Shown: positions 5,280-57,283 of the stretch, one piece after another
How positions within the stretch are numbered: the first letter of the stretch is position 1
Layout: each line of letters starts with the position of its first letter
Source: a virus
Lineage: Duplodnaviria; Heunggongvirae; Uroviricota; Caudoviricetes
Direction: 5' to 3' (one strand)
DNA: 64,000 nt
Virus record (IMG/VR): IMGVR_UViG_3300034691_000069
The notes under the pieces: model-generated
Seen by the model: the letters and a program-made list of their open reading frames with translations, nothing else
What the model was told of the DNA's origin: nothing
The model's database searches: none
Made by a program: the position numbers and the translations under genes

Positions 5280-5414
5280 TTACTCTGCGTCTTGATGACG
5301 ATTCCGGCGACGTTTCCGAAACTCGCTATCTTTTTTGTGATACTTAGCTTGTTCATTGTCTTTTTTCTTGCCACCGCGAAAACGTTCTTGTGCGTCACCG
5401 AAAGAGCCTTGCAT
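5280..5414 (-). CDS. small basic protein, 44 aa (MQGSFGDAQERFRGGKKKDNEQAKYHKKDSEFRKRRRNRHQDAE), copy 1 of 3
   Basis: ATG with AGGAGA RBS; promoter-like TTCTTGATATACT upstream (plus about 5468-5482); about 88-90% nt identity to copy at 12759-12893; below track cutoff. Confidence 0.55.
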   Translation of the reverse strand: MQGSFGDAQERFRGGKKKDNEQAKYHKKDSEFRKRRRNRHQDAE

Positions 5415-5663
5415 TTTGTATCTCCTAACCTATTAGTTTGTTTGTGTTGTTTCGTTTTGATGGGATAAGTATATCAAGAAGCGGTTTATCGGTCAATCAT
5501 TTTTTTTCAAAAAACTTCAAAACAACTTAACCCGCCACTCGTTCATATTTAACATGATATTCAATCATCGAAGCCGCCATGAAAAGAATCATACACAAGC
5601 CGAAAGAGCCAACAAGCCATAATGGAAAAGCTTCAACTGAGAACCACTCAAAAGGCTTGCACA

Positions 5664-8792: not shown

Positions 8793-9085
8793 TTAATATG
8801 ATATGGACTACTCTATTTATATCTGCACCGAGTAGTGTTCCATACTTACAAGCTATATTGGTAACCGAAGTTATTATTCCAAAACAAGCTACTTGTAAGA
8901 AGTGCTGGTTTATTCTGGCAAGATGTTTGTTTCTCCGTTTCGTCTTGATGGGGTAATTATAGAGAAAATCGCTGTGAAGGTCAAGCATTTTTTTAGCTTA
9001 TTTTTCAAATACTTACATCAAAAATATATTGACAAAACAAAAAAAAGACCTACTGATATAGGTCTTGATGACATAAAAGAAGGTT

Positions 9086-12704: not shown

Positions 12705-12758
12705 TAAAGAAAGACTTAAGCAAGAAAGCAGTAGACTGGCTACTGCTTAGCTGGTTGA

Positions 12759-12893
12759 TTACTCTGCGTCTTGGTGACGGTTACGACGACGATTTCGAAA
12801 TTCGTTATCTTTTTTGTGAAATTTTGCTTGTTCATTGTCTTTTTTCTTGCCGCCACGAAAACGTTCTTGTGCGTCACCGAAAGAGCCTTGCAT
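12759..12893 (-). CDS. small basic protein, 44 aa (MQGSFGDAQERFRGGKKKDNEQAKFHKKDNEFRNRRRNRHQDAE), copy 2 of 3
   Basis: near-identical to 5280..5414; preceded by conserved 5'-UTR hairpin element (12927-12977) and promoter CTTTGATATACT (about 12988-13000). Confidence 0.55.
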   Translation of the reverse strand: MQGSFGDAQERFRGGKKKDNEQAKFHKKDNEFRNRRRNRHQDAE

Positions 12894-12926
12894 TTTTTGT
12901 ATCCTTTTTGACTGATTTAATTAAGT

Positions 12927-12977
12927 GAGCAATTGCAAGGGTAAAGGCTTACTGGTTTGCTCGACCCTTGCTGCTTC
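12927..12977 (-). promoter_or_regulatory. conserved 5'-UTR stem-loop element copy A (stem GCAAGGGU/ACCCUUGC, 21-nt loop) between promoter and small basic protein gene
   Basis: about 50-nt block about 85% identical to 43332-43383; stem differs by a compensatory pair (U-A versus G-C). Confidence 0.55.
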
Positions 12978-13031
12978 AACGTGGTTAGTATATCAAAGGT
13001 AATGAACCAAGACAAGCTTTTTTAAGAGGTC

Positions 13032-31124: not shown

Positions 31125-32246
31125 TTACTCGGGGATAGGCACTTGTTTACGAGCAAACACCATGATAGCGGCTTGTTTGTAATCAATTTCATCACCCGAA
31201 AACTTGCTCATCAACACCGACAGAAGCAATGGAGCCACTTCTTTGGCTTTACGAGCGTAATCGCCACGTTCCAAACCTTTATGCTCATCGTAGAAGCTGT
31301 CAACCGTGCGAACAAGGTAATGGTAGCTTTTACGGGCGTAGTCTTCGACTTCATCCAAGCGAGCCAGAATTTCAGCCAGTGGGAAATTATCGCTGTGTGT
31401 CCGGTAGTGATACAACGAACGGATTTCATCCAGAATTTCATGAAGGGTTGCTTCATAAATAACCTGACGTTCCTTCGAACGATCCTGAATGTTGACCACT
31501 GCCGACATTTTCAGGTAAGGAATGGTCTTGACCTTATACATGTCAGGGCCGATTTCAATCACATAACCTTCGATATCGGGGTCATTCACGTTGATTTCAT
31601 TAACGGGAATACGCTTCACCAGATGGGCAGCAATGACCGGATATTCTGCGGCAAATTCTGCCGAACGAATGTCCACATAAGCCCCTGTGTTCATGTCGCG
31701 GGCTTTCAACACATGAACTTCGTAGGTAGTGTATTCGATGAAAACACGGTTTTTCGGCGTGGTCAGTTCCAAGTCAACCGAAACACCTGTGCGGGTCAGC
31801 CGTTCAACGTCTGCGTGCAATTCTGGACTGATAGACTGTTCAACAAGGCCGTAATCAGCAAACGTAGGCTTCTTTTTACTCTTGTAGTAAAGAGTATCAT
31901 TGATCGGAGAAATATAGCTGGTGAGCAACGAGCCATCGGGTTTCAGATAAGCATGGTCGGCTTCTTCTGGCTTCACCTTTTGCGTTTCAGGGGTTTCGCC
32001 CAAGGAAAAGAATTTCTGCATTGGCAATGCCACCAGCATTGGCTCAGAACCGCCCATATAGAACATGACACCACGGCAATCCTTAGCACCCGGAAGTTTG
32101 AATTCGGAATGCTTTGGAATGTCATAGTTGAAGACACGGTAAGTCCCGCCGTCTACCGCCGAGATTTCATCACGGTATTTGAAAGACCCCGGATTAGTCA
32201 CCAGCAGGTGCATCAGTTGGGCATACAGTTCTTGTTGATAAGTCAT
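31125..32246 (-). CDS. rnlA: RNA ligase 1 (T4 gp63/Rnl1 homolog); start taken at second Met (GGAG RBS)
   Basis: similarity to T4 Rnl1 including YR(V/I)F.Y...LP...CRG(V/I)MF, nucleotidyltransferase motif I KPDGSL and motif IV EGYVI; antisense 373-aa track ORF is a shadow. Confidence 0.8.
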   Translation of the reverse strand: MTYQQELYAQLMHLLVTNPGSFKYRDEISAVDGGTYRVFNYDIPKHSEFKLPGAKDCRGVMFYMGGSEPMLVALPMQKFFSLGETPETQKVKPEEADHAYLKPDGSLLTSYISPINDTLYYKSKKKPTFADYGLVEQSISPELHADVERLTRTGVSVDLELTTPKNRVFIEYTTYEVHVLKARDMNTGAYVDIRSAEFAAEYPVIAAHLVKRIPVNEINVNDPDIEGYVIEIGPDMYKVKTIPYLKMSAVVNIQDRSKERQVIYEATLHEILDEIRSLYHYRTHSDNFPLAEILARLDEVEDYARKSYHYLVRTVDSFYDEHKGLERGDYARKAKEVAPLLLSVLMSKFSGDEIDYKQAAIMVFARKQVPIPE

Positions 32247-32302
32247 GTGAATCTCCATGATTAAATTGTCTGAATCTATTATATCAAAAACTGATTTTTA
32301 AT

Positions 32303-33216: not shown

Positions 33217-34338
33217 TTAAACGGGAGCGGACAAGTCGCCAAGCTCAATTTGTTCCAACGACCAATCAACCAGATGGTTTTTAGAGTAGTGATACAGGTA
33301 GTCGTTTTTGTGACCACGAATTGCCCCCATAACAAAACCAAAGTGTTTGTGGCCTTTGAGTTGGATTGCTGCAGTTTTCACGTCAACACCTTGGAATGCA
33401 GCAGCAATATCATCAACCTCTTTCGACAACGCTTCAATCGAAGCTTTGATAGCGTCATTGATACGATAAATTTCACTCAAATCAGCCGTTGGCGAGTTTA
33501 GCGACAAATAAGCAATGTAATCATCAAGTTTTTCTTCGACCACCAAACGAGCAATATCACGTTCACGAACAAAGCTAACCGCATGATGGAGATTCATATA
33601 CCATTTGGTTTTGATTTTGATCATGTTACCGTTAACGAATTGAATAACATAGCCTTCAATCCCTTCAACCGTGTTCAGCGACTTCAAAAGGGAAGCCAAA
33701 TCAAATTCTTCACCAAACAGTGGCTTGTTAACAGGAATATCAAACAACAACGCCAGTTGGTCTTTTTCAGCAGGCATTAAGTAATCGCCTGTGATGTTGT
33801 GACGAACATGAAGCAATGTCATGTTGTCTTCGTCATAACGCAAAACGATACGATGCTTTGGCGAAGTGAATTCAAAAATTGGCGTCAGTTGGGCCTGAGA
33901 GCAATATTTGGTGAACTCGTAGTATTTCTGGTTACGAGAGACAAAGCCTTCTGCCGAAACAGCCACATCCGATTTGAAAGACTTCTTGGACTTAGCAAAG
34001 AATTCGCCTTTGAACAGACCTGTGGTAATCATGGAGCCATCCATTTTATCAAACCCGGCAACCATAGTGTTCCAATCCAAAACGGCTGGCTGGACTTCTG
34101 CACGCTCTGCCAAGTTGAAGAATTTGTGCAATGGACGCGACAGTATTTTACCGTTGTCGTCAAAGGTAATACCGCGAGCTTCCTTTTCAACCGGAGTGTT
34201 GAAAGAGTCACCGTTGCTGATGTTGTAGCAAACGATGTCGGCACCGTTATCCTGTTTGTTAACAGAAATATAGGCACGGTCTTTGATATGAGGAATCATA
34301 TCATCAAGGGTTTCAATACGGGGGAAGATGCTGGACAT
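33217..34338 (-). CDS. second Rnl1-family RNA ligase (paralog of rnlA, diverged)
   Basis: EARGITFDDNGKILSRPLHKFFNL (cf. T4 Rnl1 ECRGIMFEMDG...RPMEKFFNL), motif I KMDGSM, motif IV GIEGYVIQF...IKIKTKWY. Confidence 0.7.
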   Translation of the reverse strand: MSSIFPRIETLDDMIPHIKDRAYISVNKQDNGADIVCYNISNGDSFNTPVEKEARGITFDDNGKILSRPLHKFFNLAERAEVQPAVLDWNTMVAGFDKMDGSMITTGLFKGEFFAKSKKSFKSDVAVSAEGFVSRNQKYYEFTKYCSQAQLTPIFEFTSPKHRIVLRYDEDNMTLLHVRHNITGDYLMPAEKDQLALLFDIPVNKPLFGEEFDLASLLKSLNTVEGIEGYVIQFVNGNMIKIKTKWYMNLHHAVSFVRERDIARLVVEEKLDDYIAYLSLNSPTADLSEIYRINDAIKASIEALSKEVDDIAAAFQGVDVKTAAIQLKGHKHFGFVMGAIRGHKNDYLYHYSKNHLVDWSLEQIELGDLSAPV

Positions 34339-38181: not shown

Positions 38182-38760
38182 TCAATCTTCGATGTAAAGA
38201 CGTTTTAAGTAAGGCCGCACGTTTTTGAAAATAACGTCAGCTTCTTCTACTGAAAAGCCTTTTTCACGAACAATACTTTCGAGTTTTTCAATGCCCTTGT
38301 TATAGACATAAAGCGGCGTGTGCAAATGATTGAAAGCAACCTTCCAGTCAAGTTCTGCAGCTTCTGGATGTTCTTTTGTGAAATTGTGTGCGAATTCAAT
38401 TTCAAGGATTTCGTAAAAACGATGAAAATACTGTTTGGATTGCTCCACGATATCGTCAACAGTAAAAACAGCAACCGGCAACGATTCCGGTGAATTACTG
38501 ACCAAAATGTTCCATTCAGTGAGTGCTGCCGTGGCTGTGATGGCTTGCAAAGCGGCATAGTTCACTGGATTAGCACGAAAGTAGATAAATAGCTTACCTG
38601 ACGCCATTTCGGCCACGACAGTGCCATGTGTCTGCCAAGAGAACAAAAAGGACTGATATTTAGTATTTTGGTGGTCTTTGAACATACTGCGAGCCACCGC
38701 AATACCGACTTCTTGAGCCAATTGTTCATCTTTCGTATTAAAAACTGAATGCTCATTCAT
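38182..38760 (-). CDS. hypothetical protein
   Basis: ORF track. Confidence 0.5.
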   Translation of the reverse strand: MNEHSVFNTKDEQLAQEVGIAVARSMFKDHQNTKYQSFLFSWQTHGTVVAEMASGKLFIYFRANPVNYAALQAITATAALTEWNILVSNSPESLPVAVFTVDDIVEQSKQYFHRFYEILEIEFAHNFTKEHPEAAELDWKVAFNHLHTPLYVYNKGIEKLESIVREKGFSVEEADVIFKNVRPYLKRLYIED

Positions 38761-42863: not shown

Positions 42864-42958
42864 GATTGACCTCCAAAATTTGTTAAATTATACCATAAAA
42901 TTTAAAAAAGATAAACAAAAAACCCGCACGAAGCGGGCTTTTTTTAAGCTGTCTACTG

Positions 42959-43297
42959 TTAATAGTAGCTACGGTTATACAGGCGGTTAGTCGTGCGACG
43001 AAGCTGTTCTTCAAACACCCGACGTTGACCACTGGACAAGCAACGGTCTTTGCTGGTTTCGATGCTGGCAATACGCTTTTGGAACATTTGATTGGCTCGC
43101 TGGGCTTCTTTTTGAGAGTCAGCAAACCGAACATCAGTTGCACGGCGAATATAGGCATTTTGAGCTTGTTTGTCCGCATTCACGATGCACTTGCGTTCAA
43201 TTTGACGTTCTTTATAGGAGCCATACTGGCCCGAAGACACACAGCCAGTCATCATTACAAGGGCAAGAGCAGCAAAAACAATTTTCATTACTTTCAT
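42959..43297 (-). CDS. lipoprotein (lipobox MMTGC), basic coiled-coil-like
   Basis: ORF track; preceded by conserved 5'-UTR hairpin element copy B. Confidence 0.55.
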   Translation of the reverse strand: MKVMKIVFAALALVMMTGCVSSGQYGSYKERQIERKCIVNADKQAQNAYIRRATDVRFADSQKEAQRANQMFQKRIASIETSKDRCLSSGQRRVFEEQLRRTTNRLYNRSYY

Positions 43298-43331
43298 GGT
43301 CGTATCCTTCTCGTATCAATTAAGGTCGAAT

Positions 43332-43383
43332 GAGCAACTGCAAGGGGAAAGGCTTATTGGCTTGCTCGCCCCTTGCTGCTTCG
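43332..43383 (-). promoter_or_regulatory. conserved 5'-UTR stem-loop element copy B (stem GCAAGGGG/CCCCUUGC)
   Basis: about 85% identical to 12927-12977; sits between promoter ATTGATATAAT (plus about 43392-43405) and lipoprotein gene. Confidence 0.55.
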
Positions 43384-43408
43384 ATGGAGTAATTATATCA
43401 ATATCGAC

Positions 43409-43783
43409 CTAGATAATCAAGGTTTTTGGTGAACTTCTTTCAATGAGTTCGCAAAAAAAGAAGGTCATAAATTTGAGTTTTTTCCAAAAACCTTTTGGAG
43501 AAAATTGAGAACTGTGATAGGTATACAAAGTATTTCCTTTCCAATGGTCAATCACCATACCACCACGAAAAATCATCAGAGTGACTGAGTTATAATCATA
43601 CTTGTAGTAAGTGACTTTACCAGAAACCGGATGAATGACGGGCTGACTGGTTGATTTGCTAAACTTAATTCTGGCTCCAACTCTATTACATTTATTCTTG
43701 CTGAAATATTCAACAGGCAAAGAATAACCAAGATTCATGCCAACCAGAAATCGCATCAACAAAATTTGAAAGAAGATTAACAT
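43409..43783 (-). CDS. membrane-anchored hypothetical protein
   Basis: ORF track; N-terminal TM. Confidence 0.5.
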   Translation of the reverse strand: MLIFFQILLMRFLVGMNLGYSLPVEYFSKNKCNRVGARIKFSKSTSQPVIHPVSGKVTYYKYDYNSVTLMIFRGGMVIDHWKGNTLYTYHSSQFSPKGFWKKLKFMTFFFCELIERSSPKTLII

Positions 43784-44744: not shown

Positions 44745-45278
44745 TTAATCTGGCTGGCCGAAGAAGACAGCACTAACATCAAGGGTCAAACCTTTACGTT
44801 CTTTGTTGAGGTTAATGTCAACAAAATTTTCAAGCCATGCTTTGTTGCAACGAGATTTTTGTTCTTGATTAGTATCAACCAAGCGAGTAACAACCAATCG
44901 CATACCCAAGAAATGGGTGCAGATATAGACGCTATCAGCCGTTGCCAGTTCTCGACAGAAAATATCGTAGGCTTCTGCATAGACGGCTGCGTCAATCTTG
45001 TTACCAACATTAGCCGCCAGCTTCACCAATTTAGGTAGCGATTTAGGCAGATCGATTTCATCAATTTCAATAGCCGATGATTTTTCATCTTTAATCGCTG
45101 TCAACAGATATTTACTGAGATTGTTAGCTTTATAAGCTTGCTCGTTAATCAAAAAGCTCAAGCCTTTGATTTTGTTCGTGGCACCTGCAAACAGGTCATT
45201 GAGTTCATCAACAGTGATGTTCTTGTCTTCAATGAGCAATGTTGCTTTGATTGTTTTATTAGCCATGTAAAACTCCAA
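44745..45278 (-). CDS. hypothetical protein
   Basis: ORF track. Confidence 0.5.
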   Translation of the reverse strand: MEFYMANKTIKATLLIEDKNITVDELNDLFAGATNKIKGLSFLINEQAYKANNLSKYLLTAIKDEKSSAIEIDEIDLPKSLPKLVKLAANVGNKIDAAVYAEAYDIFCRELATADSVYICTHFLGMRLVVTRLVDTNQEQKSRCNKAWLENFVDINLNKERKGLTLDVSAVFFGQPD

Positions 45279-56870: not shown

Positions 56871-57063
56871 TATCGTATTCTCCTAATATTTAGTTGTTAA
56901 CAACACAATCTAGATTGCATTAGTTGCTTTAATTATAATGATATAAAGTATTAATAATTTACCACAGTGATGTAAAAAGTCAATAAATAATGAAAATGAT
57001 TATCATTACACAATGTAAAAAAGTAATAAAAAAACCACTCGAAAGTGGTCTTAGTGTATAAAG

Positions 57064-57133
57064 GCTGTATGATGGGATTCGAACCCACGACTACCGTTTT
57101 TCGACGGAGTTCTGCCGACTGAACTACAAACAG
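57064..57133 (-). tRNA. tRNA-like element with canonical acceptor/D/T arms but aberrant anticodon arm (3-4 bp stem, 6-8 nt loop UCGAAAAA); no encoded CCA
   Basis: minus-strand read CUGUUUG-UA-GUUC-AGUCGGCA-GAAC-...-GUGGG-UUCGAAU-CCCAU-CAUACAG; T-loop GGUUCGAAUCC perfect. Confidence 0.45.
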
Positions 57134-57151: not shown

Positions 57152-57283
57152 TTATTCGTTAACGTGACGATCACGACGCTTCTTTCGCCAGTTCTTGTCT
57201 TGCTCATGAGTTTTTGCTTTTTCTGTGTCACGTTTTTTGCCACCACGGAAACGTTCTGTTGCGTCACCAAATGAACCTTGCAT
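57152..57283 (-). CDS. small basic protein, 43 aa (MQGSFGDATERFRGGKKRDTEKAKTHEQDKNWRKKRRDRHVNE), copy 3 of 3 (diverged); track ORF over-extended upstream
   Basis: homologous to 5280..5414 and 12759..12893; internal ATG with AAGG RBS. Confidence 0.5.
   Translation of the reverse strand: MQGSFGDATERFRGGKKRDTEKAKTHEQDKNWRKKRRDRHVNE

Follow-up and report, generated by a model that had tools for sequence, protein, structure and literature searches.

The hairpins that bind the N protein of lambda (boxB), the coat proteins of MS2 and PP7, and the RegA protein of T4 are short hairpins whose loops are conserved for recognition by a protein, and boxB lies just downstream of early promoters. Phage early mRNAs also contain RNase III sites, such as R1.1 of T7 and the site in the lambda N leader. 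The 5' hairpin of the T7 gene 10 mRNA belongs to another class, the stem-loops that stabilize an mRNA. That 5' stem-loops guard bacterial mRNAs from 5'-end-dependent decay is established (reviewed in PMC3997798; see the ompA and papA papers cited there). Finally, T4-type phages carry PeSL cassettes, in which a strong sigma-70-like early promoter and a stem-loop precede small accessory genes in plastic regions (PMC4122927, PMC2839356). PeSLs have many copies, which are scattered over hyperplastic regions and flank indels between close relatives. The stem-loop of a PeSL immediately precedes the promoter and terminates transcription (PMC4122927), with a G/C stem and then a T-run.

The hairpin that we describe here was found in the window, by which we mean the whole stretch of 64,000 nucleotides of viral DNA that was analyzed. 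The G+C content of the window is 37.9%. It carries three tRNAs and, on the minus strand, about 100 small genes, most of which have their own promoter and their own terminator. Two of these units, A and B, contain the hairpin. Both are monocistronic and have their own terminators, and their features are:

12987..13015, minus strand: sigma-70-type promoter of unit A (from a consensus scan), with -35 element TTGTCT, a 17-nt spacer, and extended -10 element TGATATACT

12928..12975, minus strand: hairpin copy A, with outer helix AGCA/UGCU, a 3-nt bulge, and an inner helix that pairs 12971-12964 with 12942-12935

12963-12943, minus strand: apical region of hairpin A, 21 nt, with a possible GAG/CUU helix

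12759..12893, minus strand: gene downstream of hairpin A, for the second of three paralogues of a 44-amino-acid basic protein, with Shine-Dalgarno sequence AAGGA about 22 nt past the hairpin

12726..12748, minus strand: terminator-like hairpin that closes unit A, conserved in two related contigs (L006 and L013)

43392..43420, minus strand: sigma-70-type promoter of unit B, with -35 element TTGATT, a 17-nt spacer, and extended -10 element TGATATAAT

43333..43380, minus strand: hairpin copy B, with the same architecture as copy A and an inner helix that pairs 43376-43369 with 43347-43340

42959..43297, minus strand: gene for a putative lipoprotein of 112 amino acids, served by hairpin B

42917..42943, minus strand: strong intrinsic terminator at the end of unit B, after which a new promoter serves the next gene

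The initial annotation had described two hairpins with 8-bp stems and 21-nt loops, immediately downstream of minus-strand promoters, one ahead of the second copy of the 44-amino-acid basic protein and the other ahead of a lipoprotein gene. We agree with all of this: reading the minus strand of both copies gives the same coordinates, stems, and loop, a consensus scan places a sigma-70-type promoter before each hairpin, and the downstream genes are the ones that were named. On the minus strand, the inner hairpin of copy A (12971..12935) is GCAAGGGU-CGAGCAAACCAGUAAGCCUUU-ACCCUUGC and that of copy B (43376..43340) is GCAAGGGG-CGAGCAAGCCAAUAAGCCUUU-CCCCUUGC, so that the 8-bp inner helix pairs GCAAGGG(U/G) with (A/C)CCCUUGC. 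Two parts of the structure were absent from the earlier description: an outer helix of 3-4 bp (AGCA/UGCU), which is set apart from the inner stem by the 3-nt bulge, and a possible extension of 3 bp (GAG/CUU) within the 21-nt "loop." The layout is then 3-4 bp, a 3-nt bulge, 8 bp, a 1x1 mismatch, and 3 bp, or about 15 interrupted base pairs. The folding z-scores of the 58-nt hairpins are -2.7 to -2.8.

Self-BLAST aligns the two copies in one 71-nt block (12996..12926 versus 43401..43331, minus strand) with 84.5% identity, as compared to an earlier estimate of about 85%. The 5' limit of the block is the extended -10 element and its 3' limit is just past the hairpin; self-BLAST found no similarity between the flanks of A and B outside of the block. 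Within the 52-nt hairpin there are five differences, of which two form a compensatory pair, two are in the loop, and one is in the bulge. A degenerate pattern for the hairpin matches the window at exactly two places and did not match any of 100 shuffled sequences, and two covariance models with filters off found only these two copies in the 64 kb. The weak matches to the models in the window (45228-45257, 38413-38466, 2123-2199, and 106-165) and in a related contig (L029, 14851-14932) were coding, were not conserved, or folded no better than shuffled sequences, and we rejected them as copies. The model also weakly picked up the terminator hairpin after the second 44-amino-acid paralogue (E = 0.08), which has the sequence AAGCAGUAGCCAGUCUACUGCUU and lies at 12726-12748 on the minus strand and at 2136-2174 in contig L013. 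It opens with GAAGCAG, as does the base of the 5' hairpin, and this likeness is probably a coincidence.

Some simpler accounts of the hairpin can be set aside. It is not an intrinsic terminator or attenuator, as there is no U-tract 3' of the stem on either strand (the next letters are CACUUAAUU in A and CAUUCGACC in B) and the stem is missing from the list of a terminator scan. A UUG-initiated frame of 20 codons runs through copy A, and its start is missing in copy B (TCG), so we rejected a leader peptide. We also rejected a trans-acting antisense partner, as the complement of the loop is absent from the rest of the window. At gathering thresholds, Rfam 15 finds only the three tRNAs in the window, and around both copies there were only chance matches at E ≤ 10 (all with E ≥ 2 and far below gathering scores).

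The window has few links to catalogued phages. Only about 8 of its 106 predicted proteins match Pfam and about 98 do not; the matched proteins include two T4 Rnl1-type RNA ligases, RNase_T, NUDIX, HNH, GNAT, Band_7, pentapeptide, and DUF2807. None of the 10 largest proteins in the window matches PHROGs, and INPHARED contains no phage that is close to the window. The only link at the protein level to a catalogued phage is the T4-type RNA ligase, whose best match is from the Ralstonia jumbo phage RsoM2USA (42% identity). The two RNA ligase paralogues are neighbors (31125-32258 and 33217-34338, minus strand). One of them is much more divergent (Pfam E = 2e-7 versus 3e-27), and the pair is kept in related contigs (L029).

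Homologues of the 44-amino-acid protein and of the lipoprotein were found in metagenome assemblies only. The syntenic metagenome contigs, which are from independent assemblies (JGI 3300034157 and 3300028584; ENA ERZ27281805 and ERZ27247443), are 1,281,823, 1,843,594, 1,851,360, and 1,917,244 bp long; the labels L006, L011, L012, L018, and L030 stand for regions on them. Their genes are phage-like and nearly all of them cannot be annotated. If these contigs are true single replicons, then they are far above any described phage genome in size; alternatively, they are small bacterial chromosomes that carry huge islands of ORFans. More distant relatives are viral contigs of 64-290 kb from IMG/VR.

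Searching metagenome contigs with a covariance model that was built from the first six sequences gave nine further distinct variants of the hairpin, or 11 with A and B. The hairpin is at the orthologous site upstream of the 44-amino-acid gene in L006, L010/L011, and L013/L014, and it is upstream of the lipoprotein gene in L015/L016, L030, L022-L027, L018-L020, L028, and L029. There is also a third locus, in L007, where the hairpin precedes a gene for a protein of 182 amino acids that has no homologue in the window. So the same hairpin precedes three unrelated genes. There are two copies in the 64 kb of the window and one per 20-kb flank in the relatives. Where the hairpin is kept, the identity of the flanking proteins falls as low as 86% at locus A and 71% at locus B; at more distant 44-amino-acid genes (56-68% identity) the hairpin is missing. 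Scans of viral, metagenome, and genome contig collections with loop and stem patterns found nothing or, as judged by eye and by the model, chance matches without stems.

The initial annotation had pointed out that a recent segmental duplication might explain the two copies. This is not the case, because the similarity ends at the 71-nt block and both loci have kept the hairpin while the flanking proteins diverged. Concerted evolution of A and B within a genome is not supported either. The window's copies are alike in their G-C basal pair and in having AAGCC in the loop, but the two copies in the 1.92-Mb contig (L011 versus L030) differ at both the basal pair and the loop feature.

Alignment A4 contains the 11 distinct variants, whose source genomes are close relatives of each other. 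Standard pairs fill 97% of the pair cells, and sliding the 3' partners lowers this to 59% or less. In the 8-bp helix, G-C, G·U, and A-U all occur as the basal pair, and U-A, G-C, G·U, and A-U as the top pair. These two pairs, at the ends of the helix, are the only ones with true, double-sided covariation. Five other pairs vary by wobble only. Each of three internal G-C pairs becomes G·U in one lineage, and an A-U pair of the outer helix becomes G·U twice. The earlier argument for selection was a change from U-A to G-C between copies A and B. That compensatory change is present, but a single pair is not sufficient by itself to claim selection; the further homologues supply the additional covariation. 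The covariation score is 0.188, as compared to 0.126±0.018 for shuffled alignments, and was reached by 1 of 500 shuffles, which is supportive and is not a probability, as the sequences are related.

The substitutions also indicate which strand is structured. Read as the gene strand, the alignment has 105 Watson-Crick pairs, 10 G·U pairs, and 5 mismatches, while the opposite strand has 105 Watson-Crick pairs, 1 G·U pair, and 14 mismatches. Roughly 8 of 10 one-sided changes in the stem, counted as events, keep the pairing (p = 0.003), and among 9 transitions, 8 are those that produce G·U when the gene strand is read (p = 0.02). The mean minimum free energies of the two strands are equal (-15.9 versus -15.7 kcal/mol) and are uninformative, so the assignment to a strand rests on the pattern of substitutions and on the position of the promoter.

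Among six orthologues at locus B, 65% of the hairpin is invariant. For the downstream gene in the same six, the corresponding values are 66% at codon position 1, 76% at position 2, and 26% at position 3. Hardly any position of the bulge or of the two flanks is constant among the variants, whereas across the apical region 14 of 21 positions are invariant and 7 vary, which leaves the invariant motif GAGCA..A.UAAG.CUUU. Preserved pairing, the G·U bias towards the gene strand, and purifying conservation all bear out the central proposal of the initial annotation, which was a shared cis-acting RNA structure under selection. We are confident that this is a real RNA hairpin in the 5' leader and that it is selected.

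The hairpin is tied to the promoter. The TTG and the extended -10 element of the unit A promoter are kept in its orthologues, and six orthologues of unit B have an unchanged -10 element. This element is followed, after about 10 nt, by the stem-loop, and none of the 11 variants has an insertion or deletion between them. By contrast, the distance from the hairpin to the ATG differs among the three loci, and the gap between the hairpin and the Shine-Dalgarno sequence is variable (about 20-25 nt). Taken together, the conservation, the pairing, and the fixed spacing to the promoter imply a selected RNA element that is tied to the 5' end of the transcript, rather than a recent duplication.

From the position of the -10 element, we predict that transcription starts near 12980 in A and near 43385 in B (the A of CCATC). 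CCATC at the expected start position is common after promoters in the window, and so the predicted start leaves 3-5 unpaired nt ahead of the stem. Where another sigma-70-like promoter in the window precedes a gene, the leader is about 25-35 nt long and folds with about 0 to -10 kcal/mol. In this survey of promoters, the two leaders with the hairpin have the greatest stability (-18.2 and -21.0 kcal/mol) and are about 55 nt longer. At neither A nor B is there a terminator between the upstream gene and the promoter, so transcripts that read through from upstream would contain the hairpin internally.

There is a second shared type of leader directly after the -10 element, which is C/A-rich and unstructured, with sequence (T)AYCCCATCAARACGAAACAACAC (5420-5467 and 8910-8955, minus strand). 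It is also found at 2955-3000 in L007 and in L012, L048, and L051, and it is kept in distant relatives. It serves a 44-amino-acid paralogue that lacks the hairpin and one or more further genes, and may be a widely used module, either of the initially transcribed region or for enhancing translation.

The 44-amino-acid protein has three copies in the window (12893..12762, 5414..5283, and 57283..57164, minus strand), and only the one at 12893 has the hairpin, while the other two have short unstructured leaders. The protein's motif is MQGSFGDA.ERFRGGKKKD...RRRNRH; its N-terminal 19 residues are near-invariant in all homologues, it does not match Pfam, and a single 290-kb contig from IMG/VR has four copies (L048-L051). 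Directly 3' of the third paralogue in the window is a tRNA-like gene (57063-57133, minus strand) that scores 44 bits against the tRNA model of Rfam. ARAGORN gives no anticodon for it (it reports "aa" at position 33), and so the anticodon loop may be aberrant. The 112-amino-acid protein has a signal peptide and a lipobox with its cysteine. Pfam gave no hint of a function for the proteins downstream of the hairpins.

Our preferred explanation, which we offer tentatively and would not yet call probable, is that this is a 5'-terminal stem-loop that governs the stability or processing of monocistronic mRNAs made from host-type (sigma-70-like) promoters in a very large phage-like genome. If transcription starts about 7 nt after the -10 element, then only about 3-5 unpaired nt would precede the stem. 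The stem-loop could then control the entry of machinery for 5'-end-dependent decay or processing (of the RppH or RNase E type), and this would determine the lifetime of these particular mRNAs. The apical motif would be the probable surface for recognition by a protein from the phage or the host, which could make the effect specific or regulated. There are three difficulties. About 5 unpaired nt at the 5' end is borderline for a protective hairpin, any read-through transcripts from upstream would have the hairpin away from their 5' end, and stabilization alone leaves the invariant apical sequence unexplained. Because a plain stabilizer needs no conserved loop, we think that the apical motif is probably recognized by a factor.

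The main rival to a 5'-terminal stem-loop differs from it mostly in emphasis: the hairpin would be the operator of a small regulon, and a dedicated RNA-binding protein from the phage or host would read the apical sequence and co-regulate translation or timing, with any effect on stability being secondary. It would account for invariance at two-thirds of the apical positions (14/21) while the bulge and flanks are free to vary, for the presence of one hairpin before three unrelated genes, and for its presence at just one of three 44-amino-acid paralogues, which suggests differential regulation. Nevertheless, we are doubtful. A variable gap of 18-24 nt separates the hairpin from the Shine-Dalgarno sequence, which makes direct occlusion of the ribosome-binding site unlikely; the extra GAG/CUU helix may explain part of the invariance of the loop; and we did not find a candidate binding protein in a window where about 98 of 106 proteins do not match Pfam. 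The broadest version of this idea, for which we have similar doubts, is that the hairpin is the RNA operator of a novel post-transcriptional regulon in a giant phage-like lineage (the syntenic contigs of 1.3-1.9 Mb), in which a dedicated RNA-binding protein or nuclease reads GAGCA..UAAG.CUUU at the 5' end of selected early mRNAs and times or protects their expression. The initial annotation had listed a translational operator, an RNase processing site, and a binding site for a phage RNA-binding protein as potential functions. Of these, an operator at the ribosome-binding site is the least favored, as the hairpin's position is fixed relative to the promoter and variable relative to the Shine-Dalgarno sequence.

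Cleavage by an endonuclease, either of the RNase III type or from the phage, is improbable. In this scenario, cutting would trim the leader or sever read-through transcripts and so activate or inactivate the downstream mRNA. A long and irregular hairpin does recall the RNase III sites of phage early mRNAs, and since the upstream genes lack terminators, read-through transcripts would need processing. But the hairpin has only 15 or so interrupted base pairs, where classic RNase III substrates have roughly two helical turns, and a processing site does not require strict spacing from a promoter. It is quite improbable that the element acts as DNA, with the inverted repeat at about +10 to +50 being the operator of a dimeric DNA-binding protein or some other promoter-proximal signal. 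The fixed distance directly downstream of the -10 element would fit, the arms are an inverted repeat, and the double-sided changes are as symmetrical in DNA as in RNA. The one-sided changes are not: they are strongly biased towards G·U on the gene strand, which would be C·A mismatches under the symmetry of DNA (10 versus 1 cell, p ~ 0.02 by events). Also, an asymmetrical conserved spacer of 21 bp is atypical for the operator of a dimer. We give even less credence to a nascent RNA that acts on RNA polymerase, by antitermination like that of put or nut sites or by promoter-proximal pausing. In its favor, the RNA is structured and is made right after an early-type promoter, at a fixed distance. 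Yet unit B is one gene followed by a strong terminator and then by a new promoter for the next gene, which leaves no terminator that would need to be passed. Furthermore, the hairpin has no similarity to Rfam families even at E ≤ 10 and no pattern like boxA or boxB. Least probable of all is a non-functional remnant, that is, a promoter cassette that was spread by recombination or duplication and has not decayed yet. The hairpin must have moved at some point, given its three unrelated loci, and the more distant relatives of the 44-amino-acid gene lack it. However, its conservation equals that of codon positions 1 and 2, whereas neighboring synonymous sites, the bulge, and the flanks have diverged, and the changes in the stem preserve pairing.

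The hairpin gives an experimentally tractable handle on gene regulation in a lineage where about 90% of the predicted proteins lack a recognizable family. The handle is an RNA of 50 nt whose structure is defined, whose loop is invariant, and which has three target genes. A specific binder, if there is one, could be isolated by means of the motif. If the hairpin is purely a stabilizer, then giant phages reserve protection of the 5' end for a few mRNAs. In both cases, the hairpin is a candidate for a new RNA family that can be searched for in complete genomes.

Compared to phage RNA operators, the hairpin is similar in that it has a conserved loop sequence. But the loop has 21 nt instead of 4-7 nt, there is no similarity in sequence or in Rfam, and the hairpin is clear of the start codon and has no antitermination context. 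Antitermination RNAs of the nut and put type differ in that unit B has no operon that would need read-through. RNase III hairpins of the T7 R1.1 type have about two helical turns of mostly continuous double-stranded RNA, often with an internal loop where they are cleaved; the approximately 15 bp here are in three or four segments, which the 3-nt bulge and the 1x1 mismatch interrupt, and are shorter than classic substrates. The stabilizing stem-loops of E. coli, such as hp1 of ompA and that of papA (PMC3997798), are hairpins a few nt from the 5' end, as is predicted here, and like our hairpin they lie in single-gene leaders, apart from the ribosome-binding site. Stabilizers have about 4 or fewer unpaired nt at the 5' end, and we predict 3-5 nt here, with the start placed from the -10 element. 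Known stabilizers are largely independent of sequence, though, while this hairpin has a large invariant apical region that is common to unrelated genes, which implies specific recognition.

The nearest phage precedent is the PeSL. PeSLs differ in that their defining feature is an upstream terminator, whereas our stem-loop is downstream of the -10 element, inside the transcript, and lacks a U-tract; it also has a long conserved loop and just two copies in 64 kb. What they have in common is a conserved composite of a stem-loop and a strong sigma-70-like promoter, and both of our units have such a promoter. The hairpin is best filed as a new, lineage-restricted RNA motif of 5' leaders, of a kind that is already known.
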